DNA of 34,479 nucleotides from Streptosporangiaceae bacterium (GCA_030040095.1 JASHUI010000526.1:1-34479), one strand, 5' to 3'; positions 4,603 through 30,234 are shown, counted from the stretch's first letter. Notes: generated by a model not told the origin, from the sequence alone. A program made the numbers and translations.

Positions 4603-4609
4603 GGAGGCG

Positions 4610-5092
4610 CTACTGGAGCCCGGCGCGGACGGACGTGATGCGCTGGGTGTTGAAGCCGAGCCAGTGCATCCGGCCCGCGTAGCGCGCGTGCTCGACCTTG
4701 AGACAGCGATCCATGATCACCGTCATGCCGCCCTCCTCAGCGATCCTGGCGCCCTCGTCGTTGATCACGCCGAACTGGCACCAGAGGGTGCCGGCCCGGA
4801 TCTTCACCGCGTCCCGCGCGATACCCGGCAGCGCGTCCGGCGCGCGGAAGACGTCCACGACATCCACCGGCACGGGCACGTCGAGCAGGCTCGGGAAGCA
4901 CCTCTGCCCGAGGATCTCGCTCTCGCGGGGATTCACGGGGATGACGCGGTAGCCGTGCCGCCTGAGGTAGTAGCCGACGAAGTGGCTGGCCCGCAGCTCG
5001 TTGCCGGACAAGCCGACGACCGCGATCGTGCTGGAGGCGTGGAGCACGCGCTGGATCGTCAACGGGTCCTGGTACCGGCCGAGATCGGTCAT
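4610..5092 (-). CDS. CoA-binding domain protein (YccU/YneT-like)
   Basis: Sequence IAVVGLSGNELRASHFVGYYLRRHGYRVIPVNPRESEILGQRCFPSL...VDVVDVFR fits the family. Its start overlaps the metY stop as ATGA (5092-5089), indicating translational coupling in the met operon. Confidence 0.85.
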   Translation of the reverse strand: MTDLGRYQDPLTIQRVLHASSTIAVVGLSGNELRASHFVGYYLRRHGYRVIPVNPRESEILGQRCFPSLLDVPVPVDVVDVFRAPDALPGIARDAVKIRAGTLWCQFGVINDEGARIAEEGGMTVIMDRCLKVEHARYAGRMHWLGFNTQRITSVRAGLQ

Positions 5093-6426
5093 GTCGTCGT
5101 TACCTCGTCTCCCGCTGTGACGGCGACGAGCGCGAAACCCTGCTCCAGATCCCAGATCAGGTCGTCGACGGATTCGGTGCCCACGGACAGCCGCACGGTT
5201 CCCGGTCCGACGCCGGCCGCCCGCAGCTCGGCGTCGCTGAGCTGCCGGTGCGTCGTGCTGGCCGGGTGGATGATCAGGCTCTTCGCATCCCCGACGTTCG
5301 CCAGGTGGGACCAGAGGGTGACGCCGCGGATGAGGTCCTGCCCGCCGGCCCGCCCTCCGGCGCAGTCGAACGAGAACACCGCGCCGGCACCGCGCGGCAG
5401 GTACTTCTCCGCGAGCGGCCGGTACCTGCTCGACGGCAGGCCCGGGTAGGTCACGTTCGACGCCAGCTCGTGCGACTCCAGGAAGGCCGCGACCGCAAGC
5501 GCGTTGTGGACGTGGCGTTCCATCCGCAGCGACAGCGTCTCCAGCCCCTGCAGGAACAGGAACGCGTTCAGCGGCGCGAGCGCCGCGCCCAGGTCGCGGA
5601 GGGTCTCGGCCCGCAGCTTCATCAGATAGCCGTAGGTACCGAACGTCTCGTGGAACTGCAGGCCGTGGTAGGCCGGCGACGGGTCAGCGACCGCCGGAAA
5701 CCGGCCGTTGGACCAGTTGAACGTGCCGGCCTCGACCACGACGCCGCCGATGCTGGTGCCGTGGCCGCCGATGAACTTGGTCGCCGAGTGGACCACGATG
5801 CCGGCGCCCCATTCGATCGGGCGGCACAGGTACGGCGTCGCGAACGTGTTGTCCACGATCAGTGGCAGCTCGTGCTCGTGCGCGAGCGACGCGAGCGCCT
5901 CGATGTCGAGCACATTCCCGCCCGGGTTGCCGATCGTCTCGGCGAAGAACGCCTTCGTGTTGGCGCGGACCGCCCGCCGCCAAGCGTCCGGGTCGTCCGG
6001 ATCGACCCACGTCAGCTCCACGCTCATCTTGCGCAGCAGGTGCTTGAACTGGTTCACCGTCCCGCCGTAGAGCGCCGACGACGAGACGACGTGGTCGCCG
6101 GGCTGCAGCAGCGTGAAGAGCGCGGCCGCCTGCGCCGCGATCCCGCTGGCGAACGCGACCGCGCCGCAGCCGCCCTCCAGGCTCGCCACTCGCTCCTCGA
6201 ACACCGCGACGGTCGGGTTCATGATGCGGGAGTAGGTGTTCCCGTACTCCTGCAGGTTGAAGTAGGCCGCCGCCGATTCCGGGTCCTCGAACACGTAGCT
6301 GGTCGTCTGGAAGATCGGGACTGCCCGTGCTCCCGTGTTCGGGTCGGGCCGCTGCCCGGCATGCAGTTGCCGGGTCTCGAATCCGAACGCCCGGACTTCC
6401 TCAGGACGCGGGTCCTTGTCGGTCAC
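5089..6426 (-). CDS. metY: O-acetylhomoserine aminocarboxypropyltransferase (sulfhydrylase), PLP-dependent
   Basis: 445 aa, with FETRQLHAGQ...NPTVAVFEERVASLEGG...VHSATKFIGGHGTSIGG (PLP-Lys context)...HPASTTHRQL, the textbook Cys/Met-metabolism PLP family. It sits adjacent to metX. Confidence 0.93.
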   Translation of the reverse strand: MTDKDPRPEEVRAFGFETRQLHAGQRPDPNTGARAVPIFQTTSYVFEDPESAAAYFNLQEYGNTYSRIMNPTVAVFEERVASLEGGCGAVAFASGIAAQAAALFTLLQPGDHVVSSSALYGGTVNQFKHLLRKMSVELTWVDPDDPDAWRRAVRANTKAFFAETIGNPGGNVLDIEALASLAHEHELPLIVDNTFATPYLCRPIEWGAGIVVHSATKFIGGHGTSIGGVVVEAGTFNWSNGRFPAVADPSPAYHGLQFHETFGTYGYLMKLRAETLRDLGAALAPLNAFLFLQGLETLSLRMERHVHNALAVAAFLESHELASNVTYPGLPSSRYRPLAEKYLPRGAGAVFSFDCAGGRAGGQDLIRGVTLWSHLANVGDAKSLIIHPASTTHRQLSDAELRAAGVGPGTVRLSVGTESVDDLIWDLEQGFALVAVTAGDEVTTT

Positions 6427-6445
6427 GAAGTGCCCCCCTTCGGCC

Positions 6446-7720
6446 TCACCGGCGGGCTCCGGCTTCGGCCAGGCTGTGCTTGCTCAAAAACCGGCGGATG
6501 ATGGGCGTCTGCCGCGCTTCCTCGAGCAGGAAGCAGTCGTGGCCGTACGGCGCGTCGATCACGTGGAACTCCACCGGCTTGCCGAGGGCGCGCAGCGCCT
6601 CCTCGATTTCCCGCGACGCAGCGGGCGGGTACAGCCAGTCGGAACTGAACGCGATCAGCAGTGTCCGCGCCGACACATCGTCCAGCGCGCGGACCAGCGA
6701 CCCGCTGCCGTACTGCCGGGCGAGATCGAAGTACGTCAGCGCGCGCGAGGTCAGGAGATAGGTGTTGGCATCGAAGCGCCGGACGAATGACTCGGCCTGG
6801 TGGCGCAGGTAGCTCTCGACCTGGAACTCCGGCTCGGTAATCGTGTAGCCGATGTCGTCGGCGAACTGCAGCCGCCGGCCGAACTTGTCGCTCAGCGCCA
6901 GGGCGGACAGGTACGTGACGTGTCCGACCATGCGGGCCACGCCCATGCCGGCGTCGGGCGTCCGGCCTGTTCCGTAGTAGCTGCCGCCCTGCCAGGCCGG
7001 GTCGCGCATGATCGCGTCACGGGCGATCGCGTTCCAGGCCACGCCCTGCGGGTGAAGCGCGTGGGTGCTGGCTATCGACACGACGGCATCGATCTGATCA
7101 GGAAACAGGACAGCCCACTCGAACGCCTGCATACCGCCCAGAGAGCCGCCGGCCACGGCGGCCAGCCGCTCGATCCCGAGCTCGGTCAGCAACGCGCGCT
7201 CGGTCCGCACCATGTCCGCGACAGTGATCACGGGGAAGTCCGGCCCGTAAGCCCGGCCGGTCGCCGGGTCGATGGAGGACGGCCCGGTCGTCCCCCGGCA
7301 GCCGCCGAGCAGGTTCGTGGAGACGACGAAAAAGCGGTCGGTGTCGAACGCCTTGCCTGGGCCGATCATCCCGTCCCACCAGCCGAGCCCCTTACCCGCC
7401 GCGCCGTCCCGGTCCTCGGCTCCGAACCCGTCGCGGGTGCTCTCGTCGGGGGGCGATGCCGCGATGCCCGCCGCATGGGCGTCGCCGCTGAGCGCATGGC
7501 ACACCAGGATGACGTTGTCACGCCGGGGTGAGAGATCGCCGTAGGTCTCGTACGCGACACGCACCGGGCGCAGTTCCCGCCCGCAGTCGAGTCGCACCGG
7601 CTCTGGCAGGTCCAGGTACTGGGTTTCGACAGTGCCGACCGAGCCAGCCACGCCGACCGAGCCAGCCGCGCCGGCCGAGCCGGAGGCGCCCGCCGCGAGC
7701 GTCGACGCTGGCTCCGCCAT
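6446..7720 (-). CDS. metX: Homoserine O-acetyltransferase
   Basis: Sequence ...LPEPVRLDCGRELRPVRVAYETYGDLSPRRDNVILVCHALSGDAH...GGSLGGMQAFEW...PYGHDCFLLE has the alpha/beta-hydrolase MetX pattern with a GxSxG nucleophile. The start is set at the ATG at 7720 (MAEPAST...). The tracked ORF extends 27 codons further through a non-protein-like stretch. Confidence 0.92.
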   Translation of the reverse strand: MAEPASTLAAGASGSAGAAGSVGVAGSVGTVETQYLDLPEPVRLDCGRELRPVRVAYETYGDLSPRRDNVILVCHALSGDAHAAGIAASPPDESTRDGFGAEDRDGAAGKGLGWWDGMIGPGKAFDTDRFFVVSTNLLGGCRGTTGPSSIDPATGRAYGPDFPVITVADMVRTERALLTELGIERLAAVAGGSLGGMQAFEWAVLFPDQIDAVVSIASTHALHPQGVAWNAIARDAIMRDPAWQGGSYYGTGRTPDAGMGVARMVGHVTYLSALALSDKFGRRLQFADDIGYTITEPEFQVESYLRHQAESFVRRFDANTYLLTSRALTYFDLARQYGSGSLVRALDDVSARTLLIAFSSDWLYPPAASREIEEALRALGKPVEFHVIDAPYGHDCFLLEEARQTPIIRRFLSKHSLAEAGARR

Positions 7721-7806
7721 GGGGGCTATGTTAGCTTGCCCTCGGTTGTGTATTGTCAAGCATCCCCATAGGCATTCTAGGGTGAGCGAGAGGGGAATCA
7801 CGGGAT

Positions 7807-16840: not shown

Positions 16841-18172
16841 GTGTCCGAGACAGATATCCAGCAGCGGCTACAGGCTGGAAATCGGCAGTATCTCGATAGC
16901 ACAATCCTCACCGAGGGCAATCTGTTTCCTGACATCTACCGTACCTTTCTCGAATACCTGGAGTGGCTGAAGCGCGATCTCGCGGAGGCCGAAGAGCTTC
17001 GGCTCGCGCGGCTCGACTCGCAGCTGAGGCACGCCGCGGCGCAGGTGCCGGCCTATCGCGGCCTGGACCCGCAAGCCGGGCTGGCGCGCTGGCCGCTGAC
17101 CGGCAAGGCAGACCTGCGCGACCGGCTGGCCGACTACTGCGACGACGCCATCGACATCTCCCGATGCCGTGCCAGTTTCTCGTCGGGGACGGCGGGAATC
17201 CCGCTGCGGGCCATCCATGACTTCGACCACATCGTGCATAACCACGCCCTGGCGCTGCGCCGCAATCACGTGGCCGGCCTGCCGCTGCGCCGCAGGATCC
17301 TGATCCCCATGCGTGACGGCGCGCTGCCCTGGATCGAATATGCCTCGCCAGCGTACGGGAACTCGATCGTCGCGCAGTTCGGCTCGGTGGGCGAGGACGG
17401 CCGATTCACCGACGCCATCACCAGGGCGGCGTCATTCGGGCCCGATGTCATCTTCGGCCATCCGTCCGGATGCCTGCTCTTTGCCGAGTCGCTGCGCGCC
17501 TGCGCGCTGACCGTGCGGCCACGACTCGTGCTGACGATGGGCGAGAAACTCAGCCGCGCCGTCCGGGACGAGCTGGAGTCGCAGTTCTGCTCGCCCGTCG
17601 TCGAGGGCTACGGCATGAACGAGGTCGGCACCATCGCCGTCCAGTGCGCACGCCGCAGGTTCCATGTCGAACAGGAGCGCGTGCTCGTCGAGATCATCGA
17701 CGACGCGGGCCAGCCGGTACCACCAGGGCAGCCGGGCGAGATCGTGGTGACCGATCTCATCAACCGGGCCATGCCGCTGATCAGATACCGCACCGGGGAC
17801 GTCGCCACCCTCACGGACGGGCGGTGCGACTGCGGCTATCCGGGCGAGCTGCTGGCCGACATCGAAGGCCGCGACCACGGAATGCTCATCCTGGACGGCG
17901 GCAGGATCGCGGTGCCGGTGATCGCCCTCACCAGGGTGGCACGGCTGCAGCGCCTGCGGCGGTTCCAGTTCATCAGGCGAGCGCCGGCGCAGATCGAGGT
18001 GCTGATCTCGGTCCTCGACGGCGCGTCCGCCGCCGTGGTGACGCGGCAGCTGACTGCCGACCTGCGCACGTTCCTGCAGGACGCGGCGGCCGTGGAGGTA
18101 CGGCTCGCTGGCGATGCGGACTTCTTGCCGAGTATGTCAGGCAAGGACACCGACTACGTGTCGCTGGTCTGA
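16841..18172 (+). CDS. Phenylacetate-CoA ligase / coenzyme F390 synthetase / CapK-like adenylate-forming enzyme
   Basis: 443 aa from the GTG at 16841, with GGAGG 5 nt upstream. It carries the acyl-adenylate P-loop-like SFSSGTAGIPL, then VVEGYGMNEVGTIAVQC, PGEIVVTDLINRAMPLIRYRTGD and GRDHGMLIL. This is the PaaK-family pattern. Confidence 0.8.
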   Translation: MSETDIQQRLQAGNRQYLDSTILTEGNLFPDIYRTFLEYLEWLKRDLAEAEELRLARLDSQLRHAAAQVPAYRGLDPQAGLARWPLTGKADLRDRLADYCDDAIDISRCRASFSSGTAGIPLRAIHDFDHIVHNHALALRRNHVAGLPLRRRILIPMRDGALPWIEYASPAYGNSIVAQFGSVGEDGRFTDAITRAASFGPDVIFGHPSGCLLFAESLRACALTVRPRLVLTMGEKLSRAVRDELESQFCSPVVEGYGMNEVGTIAVQCARRRFHVEQERVLVEIIDDAGQPVPPGQPGEIVVTDLINRAMPLIRYRTGDVATLTDGRCDCGYPGELLADIEGRDHGMLILDGGRIAVPVIALTRVARLQRLRRFQFIRRAPAQIEVLISVLDGASAAVVTRQLTADLRTFLQDAAAVEVRLAGDADFLPSMSGKDTDYVSLV

Positions 18173-19275: not shown

Positions 19276-20601
19276 ATGGTGTTAAGAGAAACGACCGCGC
19301 GGGAAGCGCCGCTCGCCGGACGGCCGCAGAAGGCACTGACGCTGGCCTGCCACCGCCACGGCGTCGCCGAGCAGCCTGAGGTGCCCTGGGCCTGCCCGAC
19401 CTGCGGTTCGACCCTGCGCGCGTGCCCCGAACTCGATGAGATATCCCTGGACGTGAAGCGGCCGGACAGGCCGTACAACCTCTTTCGCTTTGACGAGTTA
19501 CTCCCCATCAGGGGTGCGGCGCGTACCGGAAAACACACCGGCTGGACACCTCTCGTTCACGCCGAAAGGCTCGGCGCAGAGTTAGGCTTACGCCGGCTCT
19601 ACCTGAAACTGGACTGCTACAACTGGCCGACCTATTCCTACAAGGACCGAGTGGTGGCCAGCGCGATCCAGCACGCGCTGGAAAACAATGCCGACACCAT
19701 TGCCTGCGTGTCGACTGGAAATGTAGGCAATTCGGTTGCCGCGCTCGCGGCGGCCGCCCACCTGAACGCGGTCATCTTCTACCCGGGTGGCATTGAGCCG
19801 ACGAAGATGCTCATGTGCCTGGTACACGGCGCATCGGTCATCCAGCTCGACGGCACCTTCGACGACGTCAACCGCGTGTGCCGCAGGCTCGCGCTGGAGA
19901 CCGAGATCCCGTTCGTCAACCTGACGCTGCGCCCTTACTACGCCGAGGGCGCCAAGACGGTCGCCTACGAGGTGATCGAGCAACTCGGCTGGGAGCAACC
20001 AGACCACGTGATCGTGCCCACCGCGGGCGCGGCCCTGCTGACCAGAATCTCGTACGGGTTCGAGGAGATGGCACGGCTCGGCCTGACCCCGGGCCGGCGG
20101 GGTCCGCGGATCCATGCCGCGCAGGCCGCGGGCTGCGCGCCCATCGCCGACGCCTTCGCGGCCGGCGAACTCATCCCCCGGCCGCGGGTGCCCGACACGG
20201 TGGCGAAGTCGATCGCGATCGGGAACCCGAGCGACGGCGCGGCCGCGCTCGCGGTGATCGCCGAGACCGGCGGCAGCGCCCTGGGCGTCGACGATCGCGT
20301 GATCATCGACGGGGTCCGGTTGCTCGCCGCCACCGAGGGCGTGTTCACCGAGCCCGCCGGCGGCGCCGCGATCGCCATGACCCGCGCTCTGGCCGAGACG
20401 GGCGCGGTCCGCCGGGACGACGCCGTGGTCGCCGTGGTCTCAGGCAGCGGGCTCAAGACCCCGGAGCTGGTTGACGACTCGTTCGGCCACGTCATCCAGG
20501 GGATCGCCGAGTTCGAGCCGGCGCTCGCCGCGCTGAGCAGGTGCCGGACGTCCGCAGGCGCCTGCGATGACCGCGCCGGGCCCGCGCGCGAGCGTCCTTA
20601 G
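19276..20601 (+). CDS. Threonine synthase-like fold-type II PLP enzyme with N-terminal zinc-ribbon
   Basis: The N-terminal motif is CHRH...CPTC. The PLP-lysine motif is PTYSYKDR, with TGNVGNSVAALAAAAHL, and the glycine-rich phosphate loop is VVSGSGLKT. The ATG is preceded by GGGGGAAGGA. Confidence 0.85.
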   Translation: MVLRETTAREAPLAGRPQKALTLACHRHGVAEQPEVPWACPTCGSTLRACPELDEISLDVKRPDRPYNLFRFDELLPIRGAARTGKHTGWTPLVHAERLGAELGLRRLYLKLDCYNWPTYSYKDRVVASAIQHALENNADTIACVSTGNVGNSVAALAAAAHLNAVIFYPGGIEPTKMLMCLVHGASVIQLDGTFDDVNRVCRRLALETEIPFVNLTLRPYYAEGAKTVAYEVIEQLGWEQPDHVIVPTAGAALLTRISYGFEEMARLGLTPGRRGPRIHAAQAAGCAPIADAFAAGELIPRPRVPDTVAKSIAIGNPSDGAAALAVIAETGGSALGVDDRVIIDGVRLLAATEGVFTEPAGGAAIAMTRALAETGAVRRDDAVVAVVSGSGLKTPELVDDSFGHVIQGIAEFEPALAALSRCRTSAGACDDRAGPARERP

Positions 20602-20651: not shown

Positions 20652-21998
20652 ATGACAAACGGTGGCGTCCCAGGCGAGCGTGAGGCCCTGCTGCTCCAGG
20701 CCCTGATCCGGAACGAGTGCGTGAACTACGGCTATGACAATCCCGAGTCGGGCAGGGAAATCCGTAACGCCACGGTGCTCGCCGACTTCCTGAGCGGCAC
20801 GCCGCACTTCACGAGCCGGCTCGTCGAGACCGTCCCCGGGCGGACCAACGTGATCGGCCGCTGGGAGGGCGACGGCGACGGCCCGACTCTCGCCCTCCTC
20901 GCGCACACCGACGTCGTCCCCGCCGACCCGGCCGGCTGGGACGTGCACCCGTTCGCGGGCGAGATCCGCGACGGCGTGGTCTACGGCCGCGGCGCGGTGG
21001 ACATGCTCAACCTCGCCGCCAGCATGGCCGTGTCAGTGAGGACGCTGGCCATGTCCGGCTTCCGCCCTCGGGGGACGGTGCTCTACCTCGCCGTCGCCGA
21101 CGAGGAGGCCGGAGGGCGGTACGGCACCGGCTACCTGACCAGCGAGCTCGCGGACGAGGTCCGCGCCGACTATGTGCTGACCGAATGGGGCGGCGTGCGC
21201 TACCGTGCCTCGGCCGCGCCGCAGTTTGCCATGATCACGGCCGAGAAGGGCGTCGCGTGGATCAAGGCGCGGATCATCGGTCGCTCTGCGCACGGGTCCC
21301 GCCCGTACGGCGCGGACAACCCGATCATCGGCCTGGCGCGCATCGTCAATCACCTGGCCGGGTCCAGCGCGAGCGTGACCGTCACGCCGGTGTGGCGGCG
21401 GCTGGTGGCCCGGCTGGACGTCGACGAGGCCACCCGGGAGGCGCTGCTGGATCCCAGCCAGGTCGACGAGATCCTCCCGGAACTCGACTCGCCGTTCGAC
21501 GCGTTCGCCCACGCGCTCACCCGGATGACGTTCTCACCGACCATGACGGACGCGGGCATCAAGGTCAACGTCATTCCCGACGGAGCCGAGCTGCAACTGG
21601 ATGTGCGAACCCTGCCGGGCCAGACCACCGACCAGGTGCTCGCCATGCTGCGGGAGACGGCTGCGCAGCTGAACGTCAACGCCACCTTCGAGGCATTCAA
21701 CGAATCGGTGGCCAACTCCTCGTCCATCGAGACACCCCTGTGGACCGCGATGGAGAAGGCCGTCGCCAAGCTGGTTCCCGGCGGGACCTGCGTGCCGTCG
21801 GTGACGACGGGCGGCAACGACGCACGCTTCTACCGGGCCATGGACGCGGTCGCCTACGGCGGCGGGCTGCTCAGCGAGCGGTTCACGTTCGACACCTTCA
21901 TTAGCGCCTTCCACGGTGCCAACGAACGGATCGATCTCGAGTCGCTCGCGCTGTCCACGGAGTTCTTCAGCTCGATCATCACCGACCTGCTCGCCTGA
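20652..21998 (+). CDS. M20/M25/M40 family metallohydrolase (dipeptidase / N-acyl-amino-acid deacylase type)
   Basis: LLAHTDVVPADPAGW and LAVADEEAGG are the His/Asp and Glu metal/catalytic motifs, and a dimerisation-lid insertion is present. GGAG SD. Confidence 0.88.
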   Translation: MTNGGVPGEREALLLQALIRNECVNYGYDNPESGREIRNATVLADFLSGTPHFTSRLVETVPGRTNVIGRWEGDGDGPTLALLAHTDVVPADPAGWDVHPFAGEIRDGVVYGRGAVDMLNLAASMAVSVRTLAMSGFRPRGTVLYLAVADEEAGGRYGTGYLTSELADEVRADYVLTEWGGVRYRASAAPQFAMITAEKGVAWIKARIIGRSAHGSRPYGADNPIIGLARIVNHLAGSSASVTVTPVWRRLVARLDVDEATREALLDPSQVDEILPELDSPFDAFAHALTRMTFSPTMTDAGIKVNVIPDGAELQLDVRTLPGQTTDQVLAMLRETAAQLNVNATFEAFNESVANSSSIETPLWTAMEKAVAKLVPGGTCVPSVTTGGNDARFYRAMDAVAYGGGLLSERFTFDTFISAFHGANERIDLESLALSTEFFSSIITDLLA

Positions 21999-22001
21999 CC
22001 A

Positions 22002-22520
22002 ATGACCGAGCCGAGAGCGGACACGCTGATCAGATCCCCCCGCGAGCAGGACCTGGACCGGCTCGTCTCGATCTACAACGAGGCCGTGGAGGACGGCGTG
22101 TCCAACTGTGACCTGTCCGAGGTGACCGAGGCGCAGTTCGCCGACTGGCTGGGCCTGCACCAGGGCCGGTTTCCGCTGTTCGTCGCGGAGATCGAGGCAG
22201 AGGTAGCCGGCTGGGCATGCCTGTCGCCGTTCGTGCCGAAGGACTGCTTCGACCGGACCGCCTACACCTCGACCTACGTCAGCAAGCGGTTCCGGCACCG
22301 CGGCGTCGGGCTGGCGCTCCGCGAGCACGTCGTCGCGCAGGCCCGCGCGCTGGGGTTCCACAGCCTGGTCAACCGGATCTTCACCAGGAACACCGCCAGC
22401 GTGGCGCTGACCGAAAGGCTCGGATTCGTGCGGATAGGCCTGCTCCGCGAGGTGATCTGGCGGGACGGCGAGTACTGGGATGCCGCGCTATACCAGCTGA
22501 TTCTGACCCCGAAGGGATAG
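22002..22520 (+). CDS. GNAT N-acetyltransferase of the phosphinothricin / methionine-sulfoximine acetyltransferase (PAT/Bar/MddA) family
   Basis: The following are all shared with the PAT family as I know it: IRSPREQDLDRLVSIYNEAV, PLFVAEIEAEVAGWACLSPF, the RTAYTSTYVSKRFRHRGVGLAL (AcCoA loop), NTASVALTERLGF and the GEYWDAALYQLIL tail. Confidence 0.78.
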   Translation: MTEPRADTLIRSPREQDLDRLVSIYNEAVEDGVSNCDLSEVTEAQFADWLGLHQGRFPLFVAEIEAEVAGWACLSPFVPKDCFDRTAYTSTYVSKRFRHRGVGLALREHVVAQARALGFHSLVNRIFTRNTASVALTERLGFVRIGLLREVIWRDGEYWDAALYQLILTPKG

Positions 22521-22524
22521 AGGG

Positions 22525-23541
22525 ATGGCCTTCATCGAGACCCTGACGCCGACGCCAACGCAGATGGAAGCGGCCTACCTGGAGTACCGGCGCGCGTGCT
22601 CCATGATCCTTTGGCGCCACGCCGGCGCCCGCGATGTGCTCGACGCGCTCCAGCAGCCGAAGTCGGCCTCGGAGCTGTCGGAGGCGATGGGCTTTCGCCC
22701 GGAGAAGCTCGAGCTCGTCGAGCTGATGCTGAAGGCGCTGGCCCGGTTCGGAGCGATCGAGCAAGTCGACGGCGGCCGCTACCGCGCGGTGCCCGGCTTC
22801 CAGCCCGCTGACATCGACCGGGATCTCCTGCCGGTCGCGATCAGCGCGCAGGAACTCGAGGGCCTGATGCACAGCGACACCTTCTCGGGCATGGTCGACA
22901 CGCTCCAGCTGCAGGAGAACGTCGCCGCGGCGCCGTTCAGCGCCAACCACATGAAGGTGTGGACGGAGTTCTTCAGCCAGCCCTTCTACGAGTACTTCCG
23001 GCGCGCCTCGGTCGACGCGGTGGCCTATCCGGGTGCGTCGGTGCTCGACCTCGGCTGCGGGCCCGGCTTCGGGCTCGGCGAGCTCGCCGCGGCCGTGGGC
23101 CCCGAGGGCTTCGTGACCGGCGTCGAGGTGAGCCAGGACTTCATCGAGGAGGCCAGACGGCGGACCGCCGGCCTCGAGCACGTGGCCGTGTTCGCCGGGA
23201 ACCTCGACGACGGCCTGCCCGCCGAGGTCAGCGCGGGCCCGTTCGACGGGGCGATCCTGGTGGGGGCCATGCACTTCTTGCACCACCACGACGTGGTGTT
23301 CGGGGCCATCGCGCGGGCGCTGCGTCCGGGCGGCCGGCTCAGCATCTCCTACGCCTACCTGAACCGCGGCACCCCGGACCAGGAGCTGATGGACATGCGG
23401 TTCGCGTTCCGCGAGCCGCGGCCGGCGGCGATCGACGCCGACGCGCTGATCGCGTCGGCGCGGAGGAACGGCCTGCTCCTGCGGGACCGGTTCGGGCTCG
23501 GCTGCTTCGGCTGGTTCCTGTTCGAACGAGAGGGTTCATGA
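22525..23541 (+). CDS. Class I SAM-dependent methyltransferase with N-terminal winged-helix/dimerisation domain
   Basis: Motif I is SVLDLGCGPGFGLGELA and the post-I acidic residue lies in VTGVEVS. The N-terminal 150 aa resemble small-molecule O/N-methyltransferase dimerisation domains. The stop overlaps the next start (ATGA, 23538-23541). Confidence 0.85.
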   Translation: MAFIETLTPTPTQMEAAYLEYRRACSMILWRHAGARDVLDALQQPKSASELSEAMGFRPEKLELVELMLKALARFGAIEQVDGGRYRAVPGFQPADIDRDLLPVAISAQELEGLMHSDTFSGMVDTLQLQENVAAAPFSANHMKVWTEFFSQPFYEYFRRASVDAVAYPGASVLDLGCGPGFGLGELAAAVGPEGFVTGVEVSQDFIEEARRRTAGLEHVAVFAGNLDDGLPAEVSAGPFDGAILVGAMHFLHHHDVVFGAIARALRPGGRLSISYAYLNRGTPDQELMDMRFAFREPRPAAIDADALIASARRNGLLLRDRFGLGCFGWFLFEREGS

Positions 23542-24419
23542 TGACAACGACAGACCTGGAGCTCATCGACCTGAACGAGGAACAGCGCGCGTCGTTCAGG
23601 GAACGCGGCTACTGCGTGGTGCGCGAGGCGCTCGACGGGGAGGCGGTCGAGCGGATCCGCGCCGTGTGCGACCGGATCGCTGACGAGGGCGGGCCGCGCG
23701 GGCGTTACATCGACCCGCGTTACGAGGACAAGCTCGAGTACCGCGACATCGTCTCGCTCGACCCGGTCTTCCGCCAGGTCATGGTGAATCCGCGGGTCTT
23801 CCCGCTGATCGCCCGCCTGCTCGGTCCCAACCTGCACCTCATCAGCAGTCACTTCATCTATAAGATGTCCCGGCCGCCGTCGGGCATCCGCCGCCGCGGC
23901 ATGTGGCATCGCGACGTGCTCGGCGTGACCCATGACCTGGGCCCGGCGGGCGTGCCCATGATGTCGGTCCGGGCCGGCTACTACCTCACCCCCGTGGACG
24001 AGGTCAACTCGGGCATCACGCTGTTCTCGCCCGGCAGCCACCTGCTCGAAGAGCCGCTGGTCGCGGATCCGGACAACGACGACCCCGCGGCCATCATCCG
24101 GCCGCCGGTGGCCCCCGGTGACGCGCTGATCTGGGAGAACCGGACCTACCACGCGGTGGAGGAGAATACGAGCGGCCGAACCCGCAAGGCCCTGATGTTC
24201 CAGTACGCGTTCCGGTGGCTGCGCCCGTTCGACTACATCTCGCATTCGTCGGAGGTCCTGGCCGACTGCGATGCCGTCCAGCGCCAGCTGCTCGCCGCGC
24301 ACGATGTCACCGAGGACGGCTCGATCGCGCGGGCCACCGGCGGGGAGGCGATCCGGGAGTTGTACGACGAGCAGCACATCTCCTGGGACCCGCGCCGGTA
24401 TCCCGGGCAGGCCCGGTGA
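23538..24419 (+). CDS. Phytanoyl-CoA dioxygenase (PhyH) family Fe(II)/2-oxoglutarate oxygenase
   Basis: MWHRDV gives the HxD facial-triad residues (an Asp is present, so a hydroxylase rather than halogenase type). The distal His is in RTYHAVEEN. The N-terminal FRERGYCVVREAL is typical of PhyH. The stop overlaps the NRPS GTG (GTGA, 24416-24419). Confidence 0.85.
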   Translation: MMTTTDLELIDLNEEQRASFRERGYCVVREALDGEAVERIRAVCDRIADEGGPRGRYIDPRYEDKLEYRDIVSLDPVFRQVMVNPRVFPLIARLLGPNLHLISSHFIYKMSRPPSGIRRRGMWHRDVLGVTHDLGPAGVPMMSVRAGYYLTPVDEVNSGITLFSPGSHLLEEPLVADPDNDDPAAIIRPPVAPGDALIWENRTYHAVEENTSGRTRKALMFQYAFRWLRPFDYISHSSEVLADCDAVQRQLLAAHDVTEDGSIARATGGEAIRELYDEQHISWDPRRYPGQAR

Positions 24420-26227
24420 CCAGCAGCACCACCATGGGCCATCCGGCGCCGCCGGCCGTGTCGGCAGCGACCGTCCCGGCGCTGTTCGCGCGGCGGGTCC
24501 GCCGCGATCCGGACTCGGTCGCCGTCGACGCGGCCGAAGGCCAGGTAAGCGCCCGCGAACTCGACGAGCTGTCCGACCGGCTGGCCGCGCGGCTCGCCGC
24601 CGCCGGCGTCGGGCCGGAGGTGCTCGTCGGGATCTGCGCCGAACGGGGGGTGCGGCTCATCGTGGGCCTGCTCGCCATCCTGAAGGCGGGCGGCGCCTAC
24701 GTCCCGCTCGATCCCGGGTACCCGGCGCCGCGGCTTGCCTTCATGCTGGCCGACGCGCGGCCGCGGGTCATGCTGACCGAACGGGCGCTGCGCGGCGTGC
24801 TTCCGGCGGACGAACGCGTGCCCGTGATCGAGCTGGAGGCGGCGGACGAGGACGCCGCGAACGCGCCGGCCAGTGCGGTGTCCGCGGACAACCTCGCCTA
24901 TGTGATGTACACGTCGGGCACCACCGGTCGCCCGAAGGGCGTCGGTGTCACCCACCGCGGCATCGTCCGGCTGGTGGAGAACCCGAACTACGTCCGGCTC
25001 GACCCCGCCGAGTCCGTGTTGCAGTACGCGCCGATCTCCTTCGACGCGTCCACCTTCGAGATCTGGGGCGCGCTGCTGAACGGCTGTCGCCTCGTGATGG
25101 CCCCGCCCGGCATAGGCTCGGCCGACGAGCTGGGCGAGATCATCGAGGCGAAGGCGGTGACCACCCTATGGCTGACCGCGCCGCTGTTCCATCTCCTGGT
25201 CGAACAGCGGCCAGGGTGCCTGCGCGGCGTGCGCCAGCTTCTCGCGGGCGGAGACGTCGTCTCGCCGGCCCACGCGGCCCGCGCGCTCGCGGTGTCCGAC
25301 GGCCTGACCGTCATCAACGGGTACGGTCCGACGGAGACGACGACGTTCGCGTGCTGCCACCCGATGCACGGCGGGGTCGATGCGACCGCTCCGCTGCCCA
25401 TCGGCAGGCCGATCTCCGCGACCGACGCGCACATCCTCGACGAGGATCTGGCGCCGGTGCCCGACGGCGTGGCGGGCGAGCTCTATGTCGGAGGGGCAGG
25501 GCTGGCGCGCGGGTACCTGAACCAGCCGGGGACGACCGCGGAACGCTTCCTGCCGGACCCGGTGAGCGAGGCTCCCGGCGCCCGGATCTACCGGACCGGC
25601 GACCGAGCCCGCCGCCGCGACGACGGCACCGTCGAATTCCTCGGGCGGGCCGACCGGCAGGTCAAGATCCGCGGCTTCCGGGTTGAGCCCGCCGAGGTCG
25701 AGACCGTCATCACCGGGCACGACGCCGTCGGCCAGTGCGTGGTCGTGCCCTGGGACCGCGGCGGTGAACGGACGCTGGTCGCGTACGTGGTGCTGCGGTC
25801 TGCTGTTGACGTGGCGACGGAGCTACGGGAGTTCGTCGCCGCGCGGGTGCCTGACCACCTGGTCCCCGCGCGGTTCGTCACCGTCCCCGGGCTGCCTCTC
25901 GACGTCAACGGCAAGATCGACCGCGCTGCGCTGCCCGCGCCGTCGGAGAGCGGCCCCGCCGGCGCCTACGTCGCGCCCGCGACGGCGCTCGAACGGCTGG
26001 TCGCCGACATCTGGATGGCGGTGCTGGGGCTCGACCGGGCCGGCGTCGAGGATAGCTTCGTGGACGCGGGCGGCGACTCCCTCGCCGCGGCGAGAATCGT
26101 GGCCCGTCTCCGGCGGACGCTCGGGCTGGGGTTCTCTGTCGACATGATTCTCCAGGCGGCGACGATCCGCCGGCTCGCCGCCGACATCGAGGCGCGGATG
26201 TCTGCCTCGCTCGACGCCGACGCATGA
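24416..26227 (+). CDS. NRPS initiation module, A-T (adenylation + peptidyl carrier protein)
   Basis: Adenylation cores present are LKAGGAYVPLD, YVMYTSGTTGRPKGV, FDASTFE, NGYGPTE, GELYVGGAGLARGY, YRTGD and GKIDR. The carrier motif is GGDSL. The hand-extracted Stachelhaus code DAFWLGGTFK is close to Val codes. There is no C, E or TE domain. Confidence 0.93.
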   Translation: MTSSTTMGHPAPPAVSAATVPALFARRVRRDPDSVAVDAAEGQVSARELDELSDRLAARLAAAGVGPEVLVGICAERGVRLIVGLLAILKAGGAYVPLDPGYPAPRLAFMLADARPRVMLTERALRGVLPADERVPVIELEAADEDAANAPASAVSADNLAYVMYTSGTTGRPKGVGVTHRGIVRLVENPNYVRLDPAESVLQYAPISFDASTFEIWGALLNGCRLVMAPPGIGSADELGEIIEAKAVTTLWLTAPLFHLLVEQRPGCLRGVRQLLAGGDVVSPAHAARALAVSDGLTVINGYGPTETTTFACCHPMHGGVDATAPLPIGRPISATDAHILDEDLAPVPDGVAGELYVGGAGLARGYLNQPGTTAERFLPDPVSEAPGARIYRTGDRARRRDDGTVEFLGRADRQVKIRGFRVEPAEVETVITGHDAVGQCVVVPWDRGGERTLVAYVVLRSAVDVATELREFVAARVPDHLVPARFVTVPGLPLDVNGKIDRAALPAPSESGPAGAYVAPATALERLVADIWMAVLGLDRAGVEDSFVDAGGDSLAAARIVARLRRTLGLGFSVDMILQAATIRRLAADIEARMSASLDADA

Positions 26228-26240
26228 GGGAGGGCCCCCG

Positions 26241-29200
26241 ATGACCGCGGAACCTCGAGGCGGCCAGGCCCACGACGAGCTGCTCGAACGGTGGCTGCGG
26301 AGCGGTCGCGCCGACGCGGAGCGGATCTCGCCGCGCCCCGGCGCAGGTCCGGCGGAGGCATCGCTCAGCCAGCGCCGCCTGTGGCTGGTCGATAAGCTGG
26401 AGCCGGGCAACGCGGCGTACAACATCCACGAGGCGCTGCGCATCCGCGGCCCGCTCGACACCGGGGCGCTGCGGCGGAGCATCGCCGTCATCGTCGACCG
26501 GCACGCGACCCTGCGGACCACGCTCCGGCCGGACGGCGACCGGCTGGTCCAGCACATCGCGGGCCCGGGCCGGTTCGAGGTGCCACTGGTCGACCTGACC
26601 ACGTCGGCGAGCAAGGCCGGGGACGCGGCCGTGCACGCGCTCGCCACGGCGGAGGCGGGCGCGCCCTTCGACCTGGCGGCCGGCCCGCTGTTCCGGGCGC
26701 GCCTGCTGCGGCTGGGCGACGACGACCACGTACTGCTGCTGACGACCCATCACACGATGTCGGACGGTGTGTCGGTGGTGCTGTTCAAGGCGGAGCTGGC
26801 CGAGCTTTACGAGGCCGCGGTCCTGGGGCGCCGCCCGGTCCTGCCCGACCTGCCGATCCAGTACGCGGACTTCGCCGTGTGGCAGCGCGACTGGCTCCGG
26901 GGCGAGCGGCTCGAGCGGCTGCTCGACTACTGGCGCGCCCATCTGCGCGGCCTGCCTCCCGTCATCGAGCTGCCGACCGACCGGCCGCGCCCGCCCGAGG
27001 CGAGCCCGGCGGGCCGGCGCCTCTGGTTCGACGTCGACAGCGGGACGGCCGAGCGCATGCGCGCCTTCAGCCGCGGCGAGGGCGTCACGTTGTTCACCAC
27101 CGCGTTCGCCGCGTACGTGACCCTGCTGCACCGGTACTGCGGGAGCACCGACATCGCCGTGGGCACGGTCGTGGCGAACCGGGACCGGGTGGAGATCGAG
27201 AACCTCATCGGGTTCTTCGTCAACACGCTGGCGGTGCGCTGCGACTGCTCCGGCGATCCCTCGTTCCGCGAGCTGGTCGCGCGGGTGAACACGACGCTGG
27301 CCGGCGCGCACGCGCATCAGGACCTGCCGTTCGAGCTGCTGGTCGAGGAGCTGCGGCCGGAGCGGAGCACCGGCCACTCGCCGGTGTTCCAGGTAATATT
27401 CGCGTTCCAGGAGCGGGGCACGGACACCGGCGGCGCACTGCACGGGCTCGACGTCGAAGAGCTCAGGATCGACAACCGCACCGCCGCCTTCGACCTCGCG
27501 TTCTCGCTGGAGGAGCGGGACGACGGCTCGATCGCGGGCTGGCTGACCTACGCCACCGCGCTGTTCGACGAGGTCAGCGTGCGGCGGCTGGTGGGCCATT
27601 TCCTGATGCTCGTCCGGGAGACGGCCGCCTGCCCTGACGCCAGGCTCAGCGAGTTCCCCCTGTTGCCCGCCGAGGAACGCGACAAGGTGCTGCTGGACTG
27701 GAACCGGACCCGATGCGACTACCCGCGGGGGGCGCGGATCCAGGATCTCGTCGACGCGCGGGCCGCGCTGTCGCCGGACAAGCCGGCGGTGGTCTCCGAC
27801 ACGGCCAGTCTCACCTTCGCCGAGCTGGTCATCCGGGCGAACCAGCTCGCGCACTTCCTGCAACACCGCGGGGTGGGCCCGGAGACACCCGTCGCGCTGC
27901 TGACCGAGCGTACCGTCGACATGGCAGTCGCCCAGCTGGGCGTGCTCAAGGCGGGCGGCGGGTACGTACCGCTCGACCCGGCGTACCCGGCGGCGCGCCT
28001 GGCTTACATCCTGCGCGACACCGGCACCCGCATCATCCTGACCGAGTCCTCCGTCGCGGCGACCGTGCCGGCCGGTGACTACGAGGTGGTGGTGCTGGAC
28101 CAGCAGTGGCCGCAGATCGCCAAGGAGCCGCAGACGGCGCCGCCGACCACGGCGACCGATGCCAACCTGGCCCAGATCTACTACACCTCGGGGTCGACCG
28201 GAGAGCCGAAGGGGGTCCTGCTCAGCCACGAGGGCTGGTCGAACATCATCGCCTGGCACGGCCGCTACTTCGGCGTGACGCCACGCGACCGCGCCGCGCA
28301 GGTGGGCGCCGTCGCTTTCGACGCCTGCGCCTGGGAGCTGTGGACCAACCTCGTCGCGGGAGCGACCGTGTGCATCCCCGCCGAGGAGGTGCGGGTGTCG
28401 GCGGAGAAGCTGGTGGAGTGGATGGCCCAGCAGGAGATCACCGTCTCCTGGGTGCCCGCGGTACTCGCCGAGCAGATCCTGGACCTGCCGCTGCCGGGCA
28501 AGCTCAGGCTGCGCTGGCTGGCCTCGGGCGGCGACCGGCTGCGGCGGCGGCCCGGGCGGCGGCTGCCGTTCCGGTTCTTCAACATGTACGGGCCCACCGA
28601 GATCACGATCATGCGCACCTGCGGGCCGGTGCGCCCGGACGGCCGTGACCTGCCGCCGATCGGGTACCCGATCTCCAACAGCGAGCTCTACGTGCTCGAC
28701 CGCTGGGGTAACCCGGTGCCGCCCGGCCTGCCCGGAGAGCTGTACATCGGCGGGGTGGGGCTGGCGCGCGGGTACCTCGGGCGGCCCGGCCAGAGCGCCG
28801 AGAAGTTCGTCCCCGACCCGTTCTCGGGACGGGCCGGCGCCAGGCTGTACCGGACCGGCGACATCGTCCGGCACGACCCGGACGGCGCGATCGCCTTCAT
28901 CGGGCGCACCGACCATCAGGTGAAGATCCGGGGCTTCCGGGTCGAGCTCGGGGAGATCGAGGCGGTACTGGAGAAGCATCCCGGCGTCGCCAGATGCTGC
29001 GTCGTCCGGCACGACCGGCCCGGCGGCGACGCGCGGATCGTCGCCTACGTGGTCGCCGCGGACGGCGGGGTGGACGCCGCCGAGCTGAGCGACGCGGTGG
29101 CCGAGCAGCTGCCCGGTTACATGGTGCCCTCATCGTTCATCTTCCAGGAGGCCTTGCCGATAGGCGCGTTCGGAAAGGTCGACCGCACCGCCCTGCCGGA

Positions 29201-29462
29201 CCCGGACGAGGCGGAGAGATCGGCGGGCGACGCGCCGCAGACCGCCACCGAGCGTGCGCTGAGCCGGATCTGGGCCGAGATCCTCGAGGTGCCCGAGGTC
29301 GGCGTGACCGTGAACTTCTTCGCCCTCGGCGGGAACTCCCTGCTCGCCACGAAGGTGGTCGCGCGGATGCGGAAAGAGTTTCCGCAGGAGATTCCGCTGC
29401 GCAGGCTGTTCCTCGCCCCGACCATCCGTCGGCTCGCCGCGTGGCTCGATCGCCCCGCCTGA
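26241..29462 (+). CDS. NRPS elongation module, C-A-T, without a terminal release domain
   Basis: The C domain has LSQRRLWLVDKL (LCL-type C1) and HHTMSDGVS (HHxxxDG). A cores are YYTSGSTGEPKGV, FDACAWE, NMYGPTE, GELYIGGVGLARGY, YRTGD and GKVDR. The carrier motif is GGNSL. The hand-extracted code DAWWAGMIMK is not one I recognise. Confidence 0.95.
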   Translation: MTAEPRGGQAHDELLERWLRSGRADAERISPRPGAGPAEASLSQRRLWLVDKLEPGNAAYNIHEALRIRGPLDTGALRRSIAVIVDRHATLRTTLRPDGDRLVQHIAGPGRFEVPLVDLTTSASKAGDAAVHALATAEAGAPFDLAAGPLFRARLLRLGDDDHVLLLTTHHTMSDGVSVVLFKAELAELYEAAVLGRRPVLPDLPIQYADFAVWQRDWLRGERLERLLDYWRAHLRGLPPVIELPTDRPRPPEASPAGRRLWFDVDSGTAERMRAFSRGEGVTLFTTAFAAYVTLLHRYCGSTDIAVGTVVANRDRVEIENLIGFFVNTLAVRCDCSGDPSFRELVARVNTTLAGAHAHQDLPFELLVEELRPERSTGHSPVFQVIFAFQERGTDTGGALHGLDVEELRIDNRTAAFDLAFSLEERDDGSIAGWLTYATALFDEVSVRRLVGHFLMLVRETAACPDARLSEFPLLPAEERDKVLLDWNRTRCDYPRGARIQDLVDARAALSPDKPAVVSDTASLTFAELVIRANQLAHFLQHRGVGPETPVALLTERTVDMAVAQLGVLKAGGGYVPLDPAYPAARLAYILRDTGTRIILTESSVAATVPAGDYEVVVLDQQWPQIAKEPQTAPPTTATDANLAQIYYTSGSTGEPKGVLLSHEGWSNIIAWHGRYFGVTPRDRAAQVGAVAFDACAWELWTNLVAGATVCIPAEEVRVSAEKLVEWMAQQEITVSWVPAVLAEQILDLPLPGKLRLRWLASGGDRLRRRPGRRLPFRFFNMYGPTEITIMRTCGPVRPDGRDLPPIGYPISNSELYVLDRWGNPVPPGLPGELYIGGVGLARGYLGRPGQSAEKFVPDPFSGRAGARLYRTGDIVRHDPDGAIAFIGRTDHQVKIRGFRVELGEIEAVLEKHPGVARCCVVRHDRPGGDARIVAYVVAADGGVDAAELSDAVAEQLPGYMVPSSFIFQEALPIGAFGKVDRTALPDPDEAERSAGDAPQTATERALSRIWAEILEVPEVGVTVNFFALGGNSLLATKVVARMRKEFPQEIPLRRLFLAPTIRRLAAWLDRPA

Positions 29463-29484: not shown

Positions 29485-30234
29485 ATGAGGAGCGACTGGC
29501 TGCGGTGCCAGAAACCACGGCCGGAGCCGTCGGTGCGTATGATATGTGCGGCCCACTCCGGCGGCGCGGCGTCGATGTTCGGGAAATGGCACGAGCACCT
29601 GCCGGAGAACATCGAGGTCTGGGCCGTCCAGTCACCGGGCCGGGAGGACCGCTTCACGGACCCGCCGGTGGGCAGCATCGACGCGATCGTCGATGCCATC
29701 GGGCCGGACGTCATGACGCTGGGACGCGACGCCGAGCTCGTACTGCTCGGGAACTGCCTGGGGGCCCTGGTGATGTACGAGCTCACGCGCTGGCTGCGCG
29801 ACCGGGGCGCCCTGGACCCGAGACTGCTCGTGGTCGCGGCGCATCCGGCGCCGCCGCTCACGGACCCGCCCGCCGACCCGCCGTTCCATCAGCGGCCTGA
29901 CGCGGAGCTGGTCCGGGAGGTCGGCAAGTGGGCGGGGGTGGACCCGGAGCTGACCCGCGATCCCGAGATCCAGGAACTGCTGGTGCCGGCGTTCCGGGCG
30001 GACGCCCAGGCGCATGAGACCTACCGGCACCGGCCAGGAGAGCCGTTCAGCTGCGACATCCTCACCGTCGGTGGCCTTGACGACGCGGACGTGCCGCAGG
30101 ATGCACTGCGCGCGTGGTCCGGGGAGACCCTCGGCAATTTCACCCTGAGAATGTTCACCGGGGGCCACCTCTTCATGCTCACCGAGTACGCCGGGCTCCT
30201 GTCGTTGATCTGTCAGTTGCTCGCCATCGAGTGA
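29485..30234 (+). CDS. Standalone type II-like thioesterase with Cys in the nucleophile position (GNCLG)
   Basis: 249 aa with an alpha/beta-hydrolase TEII layout: MICAAHSGGAASMF..., WAVQSPGRE, the nucleophile elbow LLGNCLGAL (TGC at 29755-29757, Cys91) and the C-terminal FTGGHLFML His motif. Strong SD (GAGAGGAGAG). Confidence 0.88.
   Translation: MRSDWLRCQKPRPEPSVRMICAAHSGGAASMFGKWHEHLPENIEVWAVQSPGREDRFTDPPVGSIDAIVDAIGPDVMTLGRDAELVLLGNCLGALVMYELTRWLRDRGALDPRLLVVAAHPAPPLTDPPADPPFHQRPDAELVREVGKWAGVDPELTRDPEIQELLVPAFRADAQAHETYRHRPGEPFSCDILTVGGLDDADVPQDALRAWSGETLGNFTLRMFTGGHLFMLTEYAGLLSLICQLLAIE

Follow-up and report, generated by a model that had tools for sequence, protein, structure and literature searches.

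Cysteine at the nucleophile position of a free-standing type II-like thioesterase in a conserved nonribosomal peptide synthetase cassette of a Streptosporangiaceae bacterium

In the usual view, type II thioesterases (TEIIs) are serine hydrolases with a role in editing or in release. Here we analyse one in which the serine is replaced by cysteine, namely the free-standing type II-like thioesterase (hereafter TE) that is encoded at 29485..30234 on the + strand of a contig of 34,479 nucleotides from a Streptosporangiaceae bacterium (GCA_030040095.1, JASHUI010000526.1:1-34479), this whole stretch of DNA being called the window below. TE belongs to a cassette of genes that includes a nonribosomal peptide synthetase (NRPS). 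In the 2014 review of TEIIs, product release is given as a role of the discrete enzymes and cysteine is not mentioned (PMC4147253), and among the characterised PF00975 enzymes in the literature, none was found that is free-standing and has Cys as its nucleophile.

TE is like RifR, BorB and RedJ (3fla, 6vap and 3qmv) in its Pfam family, in its sequence (33-34% identity), in its fold, in being free-standing with about 250 aa and in the placement of Asp and His, while it differs from them at the nucleophile, which in these enzymes is Ser preceded by His and in TE is Cys preceded by Asn. Because there is no cis thioesterase in the cluster, the role of TE is likely to be release rather than the editing performed by TEIIs of the RifR type. 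The thioesterase of ObiF (ObiF1), belonging to the obafluorin beta-lactone (6n8e), is like TE in having Cys in a GxCxG motif, and with this Cys in a RifR-like triad it loads by transthioesterification (PMC6668435). It differs from TE in that it is fused in cis, that His comes before the Cys, and that it has a proven beta-hydroxy substrate, which comes from a transaldolase. The thioesterase of SulM, belonging to the monobactam sulfazecin (8w2c, 8w2d), likewise has Cys with Asp in the so-called position II, and it has an amide residue before the Cys (Gln, with Asn in TE), but it is a cis domain with a Gln-Cys-Asn motif and a strongly basic pocket for N-sulfonated diaminopropionate (Dap); unlike in the SulM system, there is neither a sulfotransferase nor a Dap pathway in the window.

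Two further systems are to be compared. SyrC and CmaE use an active-site Cys, and together with LgnA, a Ser TEII that moves Thr between thiolation (T) domains, they are like TE in being free-standing alpha/beta-hydrolases; they bind an aminoacyl group covalently and act on carriers in trans, as TE would. The shuttle role of SyrC and CmaE has been described (PMC8748450). These systems differ from ours in having an acceptor carrier without its own adenylation (A) domain, of which there is none in this cassette. In the phosphinothricin tripeptide pathway, PhsA, PhsB and PhsC reportedly have no thioesterase domain and are accompanied by discrete thioesterases, which release the product, a PAT acetyltransferase and a deacetylase. 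As far as is known, these thioesterases have Ser as their nucleophile. The cassette is like that pathway in having a split NRPS with no cis thioesterase, a GNAT acetyltransferase of the PAT family and a deacylase, the product there being a Trojan-horse peptide; it differs in that the warhead there is N-terminal whereas the invariant residue here is C-terminal, and in that there are no phosphonate genes here.

The cysteine nucleophile and its distribution

The TE gene starts 22 nt past the stop codon of the gene for the terminal NRPS module, which has the organisation condensation-adenylation-thiolation (C-A-T), and has a GAGGAG ribosome-binding site 8 nt 5' of its ATG; it is a separate gene, not a fused domain. 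The product of 249 aa scores 98.3 bits against Pfam Thioesterase PF00975 (cut-off 26.4), and by phmmer its best solved relatives are RifR (E 5.8e-38) and BorB (E 2e-36). At 29749..29763 the DNA reads GGG AAC TGC CTG GGG, giving the elbow G89-N90-C91-L92-G93 with the Cys91 codon TGC at 29755-29757. In the alignments with RifR and BorB, C91 falls on the Ser of GHSMG, which is the nucleophilic Ser94 of RifR, so that the standard Ser elbow of TEIIs (GxSxG, typically GHSMG) is replaced in TE by GNCLG. The triad acid is Asp200 (codon 30082..30084), located after strand beta7 in the RifR-type position II, and the triad base is His228 (codon 30166..30168), located in the GGH of the intact C-terminal motif TGGHLF; both residues are invariant in an alignment of 29 sequences and in 194 relatives. 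In the AlphaFold2 model of TE (pLDDT 94.3, pTM 0.92), C91 lies between strand 84-90 and helix 92-106, which is the nucleophile elbow, while D200 and H228 come after strands 191-197 and 219-224, respectively. A Foldseek search with the model gives TM values of 0.83-0.86 for BorB, RifR and RedJ (BorB 0.86), 0.76 for ObiF1 and 0.73 for the SulM thioesterase. As in other TEIIs, the protein is a discrete alpha/beta-hydrolase with a lid, of the class of about 25-29 kDa, in which the triad acid and the triad base are placed behind beta7 and beta8, respectively. TE is thus a TEII fold with Cys at the catalytic nucleophile position and an intact triad, and in this respect an earlier note on this DNA, which had reported the GNCLG elbow with TGC at its place and an intact GGH motif, agrees in every detail with the DNA reading, the RifR alignment and the C-terminal motif.

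As judged by sequence comparison, the Cys nucleophile is specific to the clade of TE. Among 5.8 billion proteins there are three close relatives of TE, P0003, P0004 and P0005, with 84%, 68% and 60% identity, all having GNCLG, while all matches of that search with at most 41% identity have a Ser elbow, mostly GHS[ML]G. In a HMMER search of 1.84 billion cluster representatives, with the best 150 of the 15,161 TEII-like matches inspected, the top match is P0047, with 48% identity and the elbow GHCLG. The TE of locus L035, reached via the gene for the PhyH oxygenase of the cassette, is a sixth orthologue, with 46% identity and also GHCLG. In a maximum-likelihood tree of 194 domains, TE together with P0003, P0004, P0005 and P0047 forms a clade (SH-aLRT 97) that is nested among Ser TEIIs, with Ser in all of its 27 nearest neighbours. 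Since a supported Cys clade is surrounded by Ser neighbours, the change from Ser to Cys in the TE lineage is an independent event. The earlier note had asked whether an alignment with TEIIs would show the Cys to be clade-specific, and the answer is that Cys is present in all the recovered orthologues (46-84% identity) and Ser in the 27 nearest neighbours.

At the DNA level the codon is TGC in every orthologue read, namely in loci L001, L010-L013 and L035, and the recurrence of TGC in independent assemblies and in orthologues excludes an error of sequencing or assembly as the source of the Cys. No orthologue has gone back to Ser, which is one base change away, over a dS of about 1. The residue before the nucleophile is Asn in TE and His in 156 of the 170 Ser relatives. 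Covariation of the Cys with a preceding amide residue (Asn or Gln) could not be read from the 194-domain tree, which has too few independent pairs. His120 was also considered as an extra base specific to the clade and was rejected, as His is present there in 35 of the 170 Ser relatives too.

In the wider family the replacement has occurred repeatedly. Among the 194 nearest TEII-like sequences, for which the best 150 of the 15,161 matches were used, 24 (about 12%; 23 besides TE) have a Cys nucleophile, with at least seven changes between Ser and Cys on the tree. Fourteen of the Cys members form one clade (SH-aLRT 99) of metagenomic origin at the ends of type I polyketide synthases (PKSs), with the domain order KS-AT-(DH)-KR-ACP-TE(Cys)-TE2 (P0048, P0050, P0052, P0054, P0056, P0058, P0064, P0072, P0080, P0087, P0099, P0114, P0148 and P0149; locus L030, 10001-17050). 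Their first thioesterase has GHC[LFIV]G, and the second, which is also TEII-like (best match in the Protein Data Bank, PDB, RedJ, E 2e-20), has Asp at the nucleophile position in 13 of the 14 (GHDLG, GIDLG or GLDLG). Most of these synthases have KR without DH, implying a beta-hydroxyacyl substrate, and their chemistry may be closure of a beta-lactone that is then opened or decarboxylated, or the second thioesterase may simply be dead. A free Cys TEII, P0164 (GHCFG), is encoded in locus L031 (120-5132) in the order MbtH, A-T, TE(Cys) and an M20/M28 fusion of 746 aa, a gene order that recalls the aminoacyl-shuttle systems. Moreover, another contig of the same genome (C442) has an NRPS end with a cis thioesterase that has WGHCGG and GSGGHYF (L006, 2-1492), and the next ORF (about 1390-2187) encodes a free TEII of the ordinary kind, with GHSLG.

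The GxCxG elbow is thus a recurrent variant, which in itself is not diagnostic of strained-ring chemistry. The view of the earlier note that Cys-for-Ser thioesterases are uncommon is overstated in view of 24 Cys enzymes among the 194 nearest relatives, at least seven switches and another case in the same genome. The note had also taken Cys in close homologues from unrelated contexts as a sign against its proposal of ring closure; Cys enzymes in other contexts do exist in the wider family, at 30-35% identity, but the close homologues are all in the same cassette.

Probable chain release in trans

We now consider the role of TE. The NRPS of the window has only two T domains, each with its own A domain, one in an A-T module and the other in the C-A-T module, and by Pfam no thioesterase, reductase or terminal condensation (C) domain was found in it among the window proteins. 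Neither a second PF00975 gene nor a free carrier protein was found in the window, its small ORFs having no PP-binding match; this bears out the earlier note, in which TE was regarded as the only plausible release catalyst. The TE gene sits between the genes for the C-A-T module and an MFS exporter, and its position after the terminal module and before the MFS gene is kept in L001, L010 and L035. Because TE is the sole thioesterase, comes directly after a module without a release domain, and is co-inherited with this module and with the enzymes that are presumed to build its unusual residue X, we consider it probable, with moderate assurance, that TE is the dedicated trans-acting chain-release enzyme of the conserved NRPS cassette, acting via an S-acyl-Cys intermediate. 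The TEII fold with its intact triad and catalytic Cys, the co-inheritance with the cassette and the lack of another release domain are shown, while release itself, the acyl thioester and the identity of the deacylating nucleophile are inferred.

Based on this reading, the following pathway can be expected. The A-T protein would load a Val-like residue, and the C-A-T protein would load X, an unusual apolar amino acid that would be supplied by the threonine-synthase-like (ThrC-like) enzyme, the methyltransferase, the PhyH oxygenase and the M20 deacylase of the cassette, and would then form Val-X-S-T2. The free TE would dock on T2, and Cys91, activated by His228 and Asp200, would take the dipeptidyl group by energy-neutral transthioesterification, giving the S-acyl enzyme. 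After this acyl enzyme is resolved, the product would exit via the adjacent MFS pump. For the deacylating nucleophile, several scenarios can be considered. The foremost one, to which we give somewhat less than an even chance, is that the nucleophile is water, yielding the linear Val-X acid, a Trojan-horse dipeptide. The second one, tentative and less probable, is that it is a side-chain hydroxyl of X, yielding a lactone of some ring size, within which a beta-lactone takes up a rather doubtful share. In the third one, which has a small chance, it is an external amine or thiol; what remains is left to something else or to a role other than release. Water is ranked first because a variable first and an invariant last residue suggest a carrier residue and a warhead, because the GNAT is of the PAT/ArsN1 type, and because an exporter is adjacent; the apolar pocket of the terminal A domain is also counted for hydrolysis. 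Jointly with the linear acid, and thus again at somewhat less than an even chance, the PAT-type GNAT would detoxify the freed warhead, an amino-acid antimetabolite.

Several points weigh against release by hydrolysis, or against release altogether. Hydrolysis leaves unexplained why Cys rather than Ser is kept: Ser would serve for it, because the Cys-to-Ser variant of ObiF mainly hydrolyses. The sole two characterised NRPS thioesterases with Cys, those of ObiF and SulM, close four-membered rings. The dN/dS of TE, about 0.45, indicates only a moderate constraint. In addition, the GNAT may be biosynthetic, in a sequence of protection, modification and deprotection with the M20 enzyme, rather than a resistance enzyme, which would remove the argument for the free acid.

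Genes and variants of the cassette

All genes of the cassette in the window are on the + strand. The first, at 19276..20601, encodes the ThrC-like enzyme, dependent on pyridoxal phosphate (PLP) (TIGR00260, 238 bits). It has the PLP lysine (SYKDR) and an N-terminal CxxC…CPxC motif, but relative to four solved ThrC enzymes STGNT is changed to STGNV, the Arg of NPxR to Tyr and GNAGN to AGAAL, and these changes are also present in L010 (15301-16620, - strand) and L035 (3942-5180). The replaced residues presumably form the phosphate site of threonine synthase. That the gene is a spare or resistant threonine synthase is doubtful, as residues invariant in the four solved enzymes are replaced and the replacements are kept across the variants; the enzyme has probably been neofunctionalised instead. 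Next come an M20 metallo-deacylase or peptidase, assigned by family match (20652..21998), and the GNAT, of the phosphinothricin/arsinothricin N-acetyltransferase type (22002..22520; NCBIfam ArsN1a, E 2e-30, and phosphinothricin (PPT) acetyltransferase, E 1.6e-26, both matches being under the curated cut-offs). They are followed by a class I S-adenosylmethionine methyltransferase (22525..23541), with weak family matches, mostly to carboxyl O-methyltransferases.

The PhyH-family Fe(II)/2-oxoglutarate (Fe/2OG) oxygenase is encoded at 23538..24419, with PF05721 assigned to its orthologues. Its H-R-D motif keeps the Asp carboxylate ligand, which excludes a halogenase like SyrB2. Its best sequence match in the PDB is SnoK (E 1.4e-6), and its fold neighbours are FtmOx1, TlxIJ, SptF, OkaE and AsqJ (TM about 0.7), none of which is an amino-acid beta-hydroxylase; the fold gave no clue to the regiochemistry. 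Remote homologues, with 44-48% identity, are in non-NRPS contexts.

The NRPS begins with the A-T initiation module of 603 aa (24416..26227, the start being set by comparison with the L001 gene), which has the Val-like code DAFWLGGTFK, and continues with the terminal C-A-T module of 1073 aa (26241..29462; Pfam Condensation, AMP-binding and PP-binding), in the translation of which the C-domain motif HHTMSDG is seen and the A-domain code of which, DAWWAGMIMK, is wholly apolar. After TE comes the MFS exporter (PF07690; 30254..31552, the likelier start being the ATG at 30284).

The gene set recurs in three arrangements, comprising two gene orders and one form with the NRPS fused. The first is collinear and is present in the window and in L001, a contig of a metagenome-assembled genome. 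The second, in L010-L013, consists of two divergent operons with the extra modules C-A-T, KS-ACP and C-A-T, MbtH and a further stretch beginning A-T-C. In the third, in L035 and L036, both modules are fused into a single A-T-C-A-T protein. The constant set comprises the ThrC-like enzyme, the M20 enzyme, the methyltransferase, the PhyH oxygenase, the PAT-type GNAT, the terminal C-A-T, TE and the MFS exporter. The identities between the window and L010 or L035, respectively, are 73% and 76% for PhyH, 62% and 64% for the methyltransferase, 62% and 59% for the terminal C-A-T, 47.5% and 46% for TE, 46% and 47% for the ThrC-like enzyme, 45% and 47% for the GNAT, and 25% and 26% for M20. M20 is present in each variant (L010, 13905-15311; L035, 5170-6561) beside neighbours that are 45-76% identical, the low identity applying to the copy of the window and L001 alike, which suggests that the M20 gene has been replaced by one of another M20 lineage with the deacylase function kept. 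The code of the last A domain, DAWWAGMIMK, is identical in the window, L001, L010 and L035, while that of the upstream module varies (DAFWLGGTFK, DALWLGGTFK or DALFLGCTFK). In L010 a KS-ACP without an AT domain lies between the Val-like C-A-T and the terminal C-A-T (3933-6050), and it follows that the product of some members of the cassette would be a hybrid of peptide and polyketide, again with X as its last residue.

The cassette was found neither in 150 genomes from its family, two of which belong to its genus, nor by two pattern scans of the species representatives of the Genome Taxonomy Database (GTDB), the TE matches in both being Ser TEIIs of at most 40% identity, and no description of the cassette or its product was found in the literature. 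The product of the cassette is probably a peptide antimetabolite that has not been described before, the invariant C-terminal residue of which is non-proteinogenic.

Some neighbouring genes are also noted. Just 5' of the cassette, a pair of ABC transporter genes (14129-16734) is followed by a PaaK-like AMP-dependent ligase of the DVU_1553 family (16700-18172), which is not beside the cassette in L010 or L035, while L001 ends before that point. At 5089-7801 on the - strand, a PLP enzyme of Cys/Met metabolism (MetY-like) adjoins an alpha/beta-hydrolase (a MetX-like homoserine acyltransferase), the pair probably belonging to primary methionine metabolism. A homoserine dehydrogenase is present at the edge of L010, and a homoserine-derived precursor for X is conceivable.

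Alternatives and meaning

The first alternative is that TE closes a beta-lactone in the manner of ObiF but in trans, with the beta-hydroxyl of the C-terminal residue attacking the S-acyl enzyme to give an N-aminoacyl-alpha-amino-beta-lactone, which we regard as rather unlikely. ObiF and SulM have in common a Cys nucleophile and an Asp placed as in RifR, a placement that TE has by descent, and the authors of the ObiF and SulM work link this arrangement to four-membered ring closure, and the ObiF thioesterase is itself TEII-like, having 29% identity to RifR and a GHCxG motif (PMC6668435). TE, however, has no more than a remote relationship to ObiF1 (E 2.7e-4 for residues 14-109, 96 in all; TM 0.76) and to SulM (TM 0.73), and the Gln-Cys-Asn motif of SulM is absent from it. 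The earlier note had tied Cys thioesterases to strained rings in the cases of ObiF and SulM; these two do form four-membered rings, but Cys is also present in contexts without ring-forming logic (P0164, the cis thioesterase of C442, and AB3403). The separate Cys clade at the PKS ends follows KR-ACP, and hence a beta-hydroxyacyl substrate, which is circumstantial support for ring closure.

For the beta-hydroxyl that is needed, it is in favour of the beta-lactone that X is always C-terminal, that threonine-synthase chemistry natively yields a beta-hydroxy amino acid, and that the PhyH oxygenase is co-inherited with TE at 73-76% identity. By contrast, residues that true ThrC enzymes conserve are missing from the ThrC-like enzyme, and chemistry of the Thr type is therefore not assured; the terminal A pocket lacks the His, Asn or Asp contacts of the Thr and Ser codes; and no kinship between PhyH and the amino-acid beta-hydroxylases was detected, the best matches of PhyH being SnoK, FtmOx1, TlxIJ, SptF, OkaE and AsqJ. 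NRPS beta-hydroxylases are usually of the TauD/CAS type, not of the PhyH type. The earlier note had linked PhyH in the operon to a beta-hydroxy residue; PhyH is indeed co-inherited, but the step from PhyH to a beta-hydroxy residue is unsupported, PhyH resembling no known amino-acid beta-hydroxylase and the A pocket being apolar. Moreover, if its N-terminal amine is free, a dipeptidyl beta-lactone should tend to aminolyse itself, and a linear peptide antimetabolite agrees at least as well as a lactone with the presence of the MFS exporter and the PAT-type GNAT and with a first residue that varies beside a last one that does not.

The second alternative, which we hold to be quite unlikely, is that TE is an acyl transferase between carriers or to another acceptor, like SyrC, CmaE and LgnA, passing its Cys thioester to a thiol or an amine. 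A thioester acyl enzyme is ideal for thermoneutral thiol-to-thiol transfer, and LgnA, a TEII of the PF00975 type, does carry aminoacyl groups from one T domain to another. The separate A-T protein with an Fe/2OG enzyme before it is reminiscent of SyrB1/SyrB2/SyrC, and the free Cys TEII P0164 comes directly after an A-T didomain. Against transfer, in the window both modules have their own A domains, with no A-less module or free T domain, and in L010 the PhyH gene adjoins no A-T. In L035, where A-T-C-A-T is a single protein, a shuttle would have nothing to do, and no candidate gene for forming an acceptor is conserved.

The weakest alternative, to which we give only a slight chance, is that TE is an ordinary editing TEII in which Cys is neutral, with the dipeptide leaving by spontaneous diketopiperazine formation or hydrolysis or by an unlinked enzyme: the TEII fold, the editing function of the closest solved relatives, the ease of the switch (at least seven Ser/Cys changes in the family) and a dN/dS of 0.45, which is not strict, agree with it, but there is no cis release domain for TE to assist, the free TEII beside the cis thioesterase of C442 in the same genome keeps Ser, no orthologue has reverted to Ser although it is one base away over a dS of about 1, and the TE gene is kept beside the terminal module in all three arrangements.

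We therefore return to TE as the probable chain-release enzyme of the cassette. It is improbable, in our estimate, that the clade is the first case of a free-standing thioesterase that acts in trans and uses Cys for ring closure during release, giving a beta-lactone or another lactone on X; if this is true, the product would be an electrophilic dipeptide warhead from a rare cassette with a neofunctionalised homologue of threonine synthase, and if the TE(Cys)-TE(Asp) clade of the PKSs does likewise, TEII-like domains with Cys would be a general and unrecognised route to beta-lactones. The repeated origin of Cys lowers such expectations, since GxCxG alone is not a signature of a beta-lactone or beta-lactam. 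In any case, a lineage in which the Cys variant has become fixed and which is tied to a single orphan pathway offers a clean natural system for learning what a thiol nucleophile buys, be it ring closure, transfer or faster turnover.

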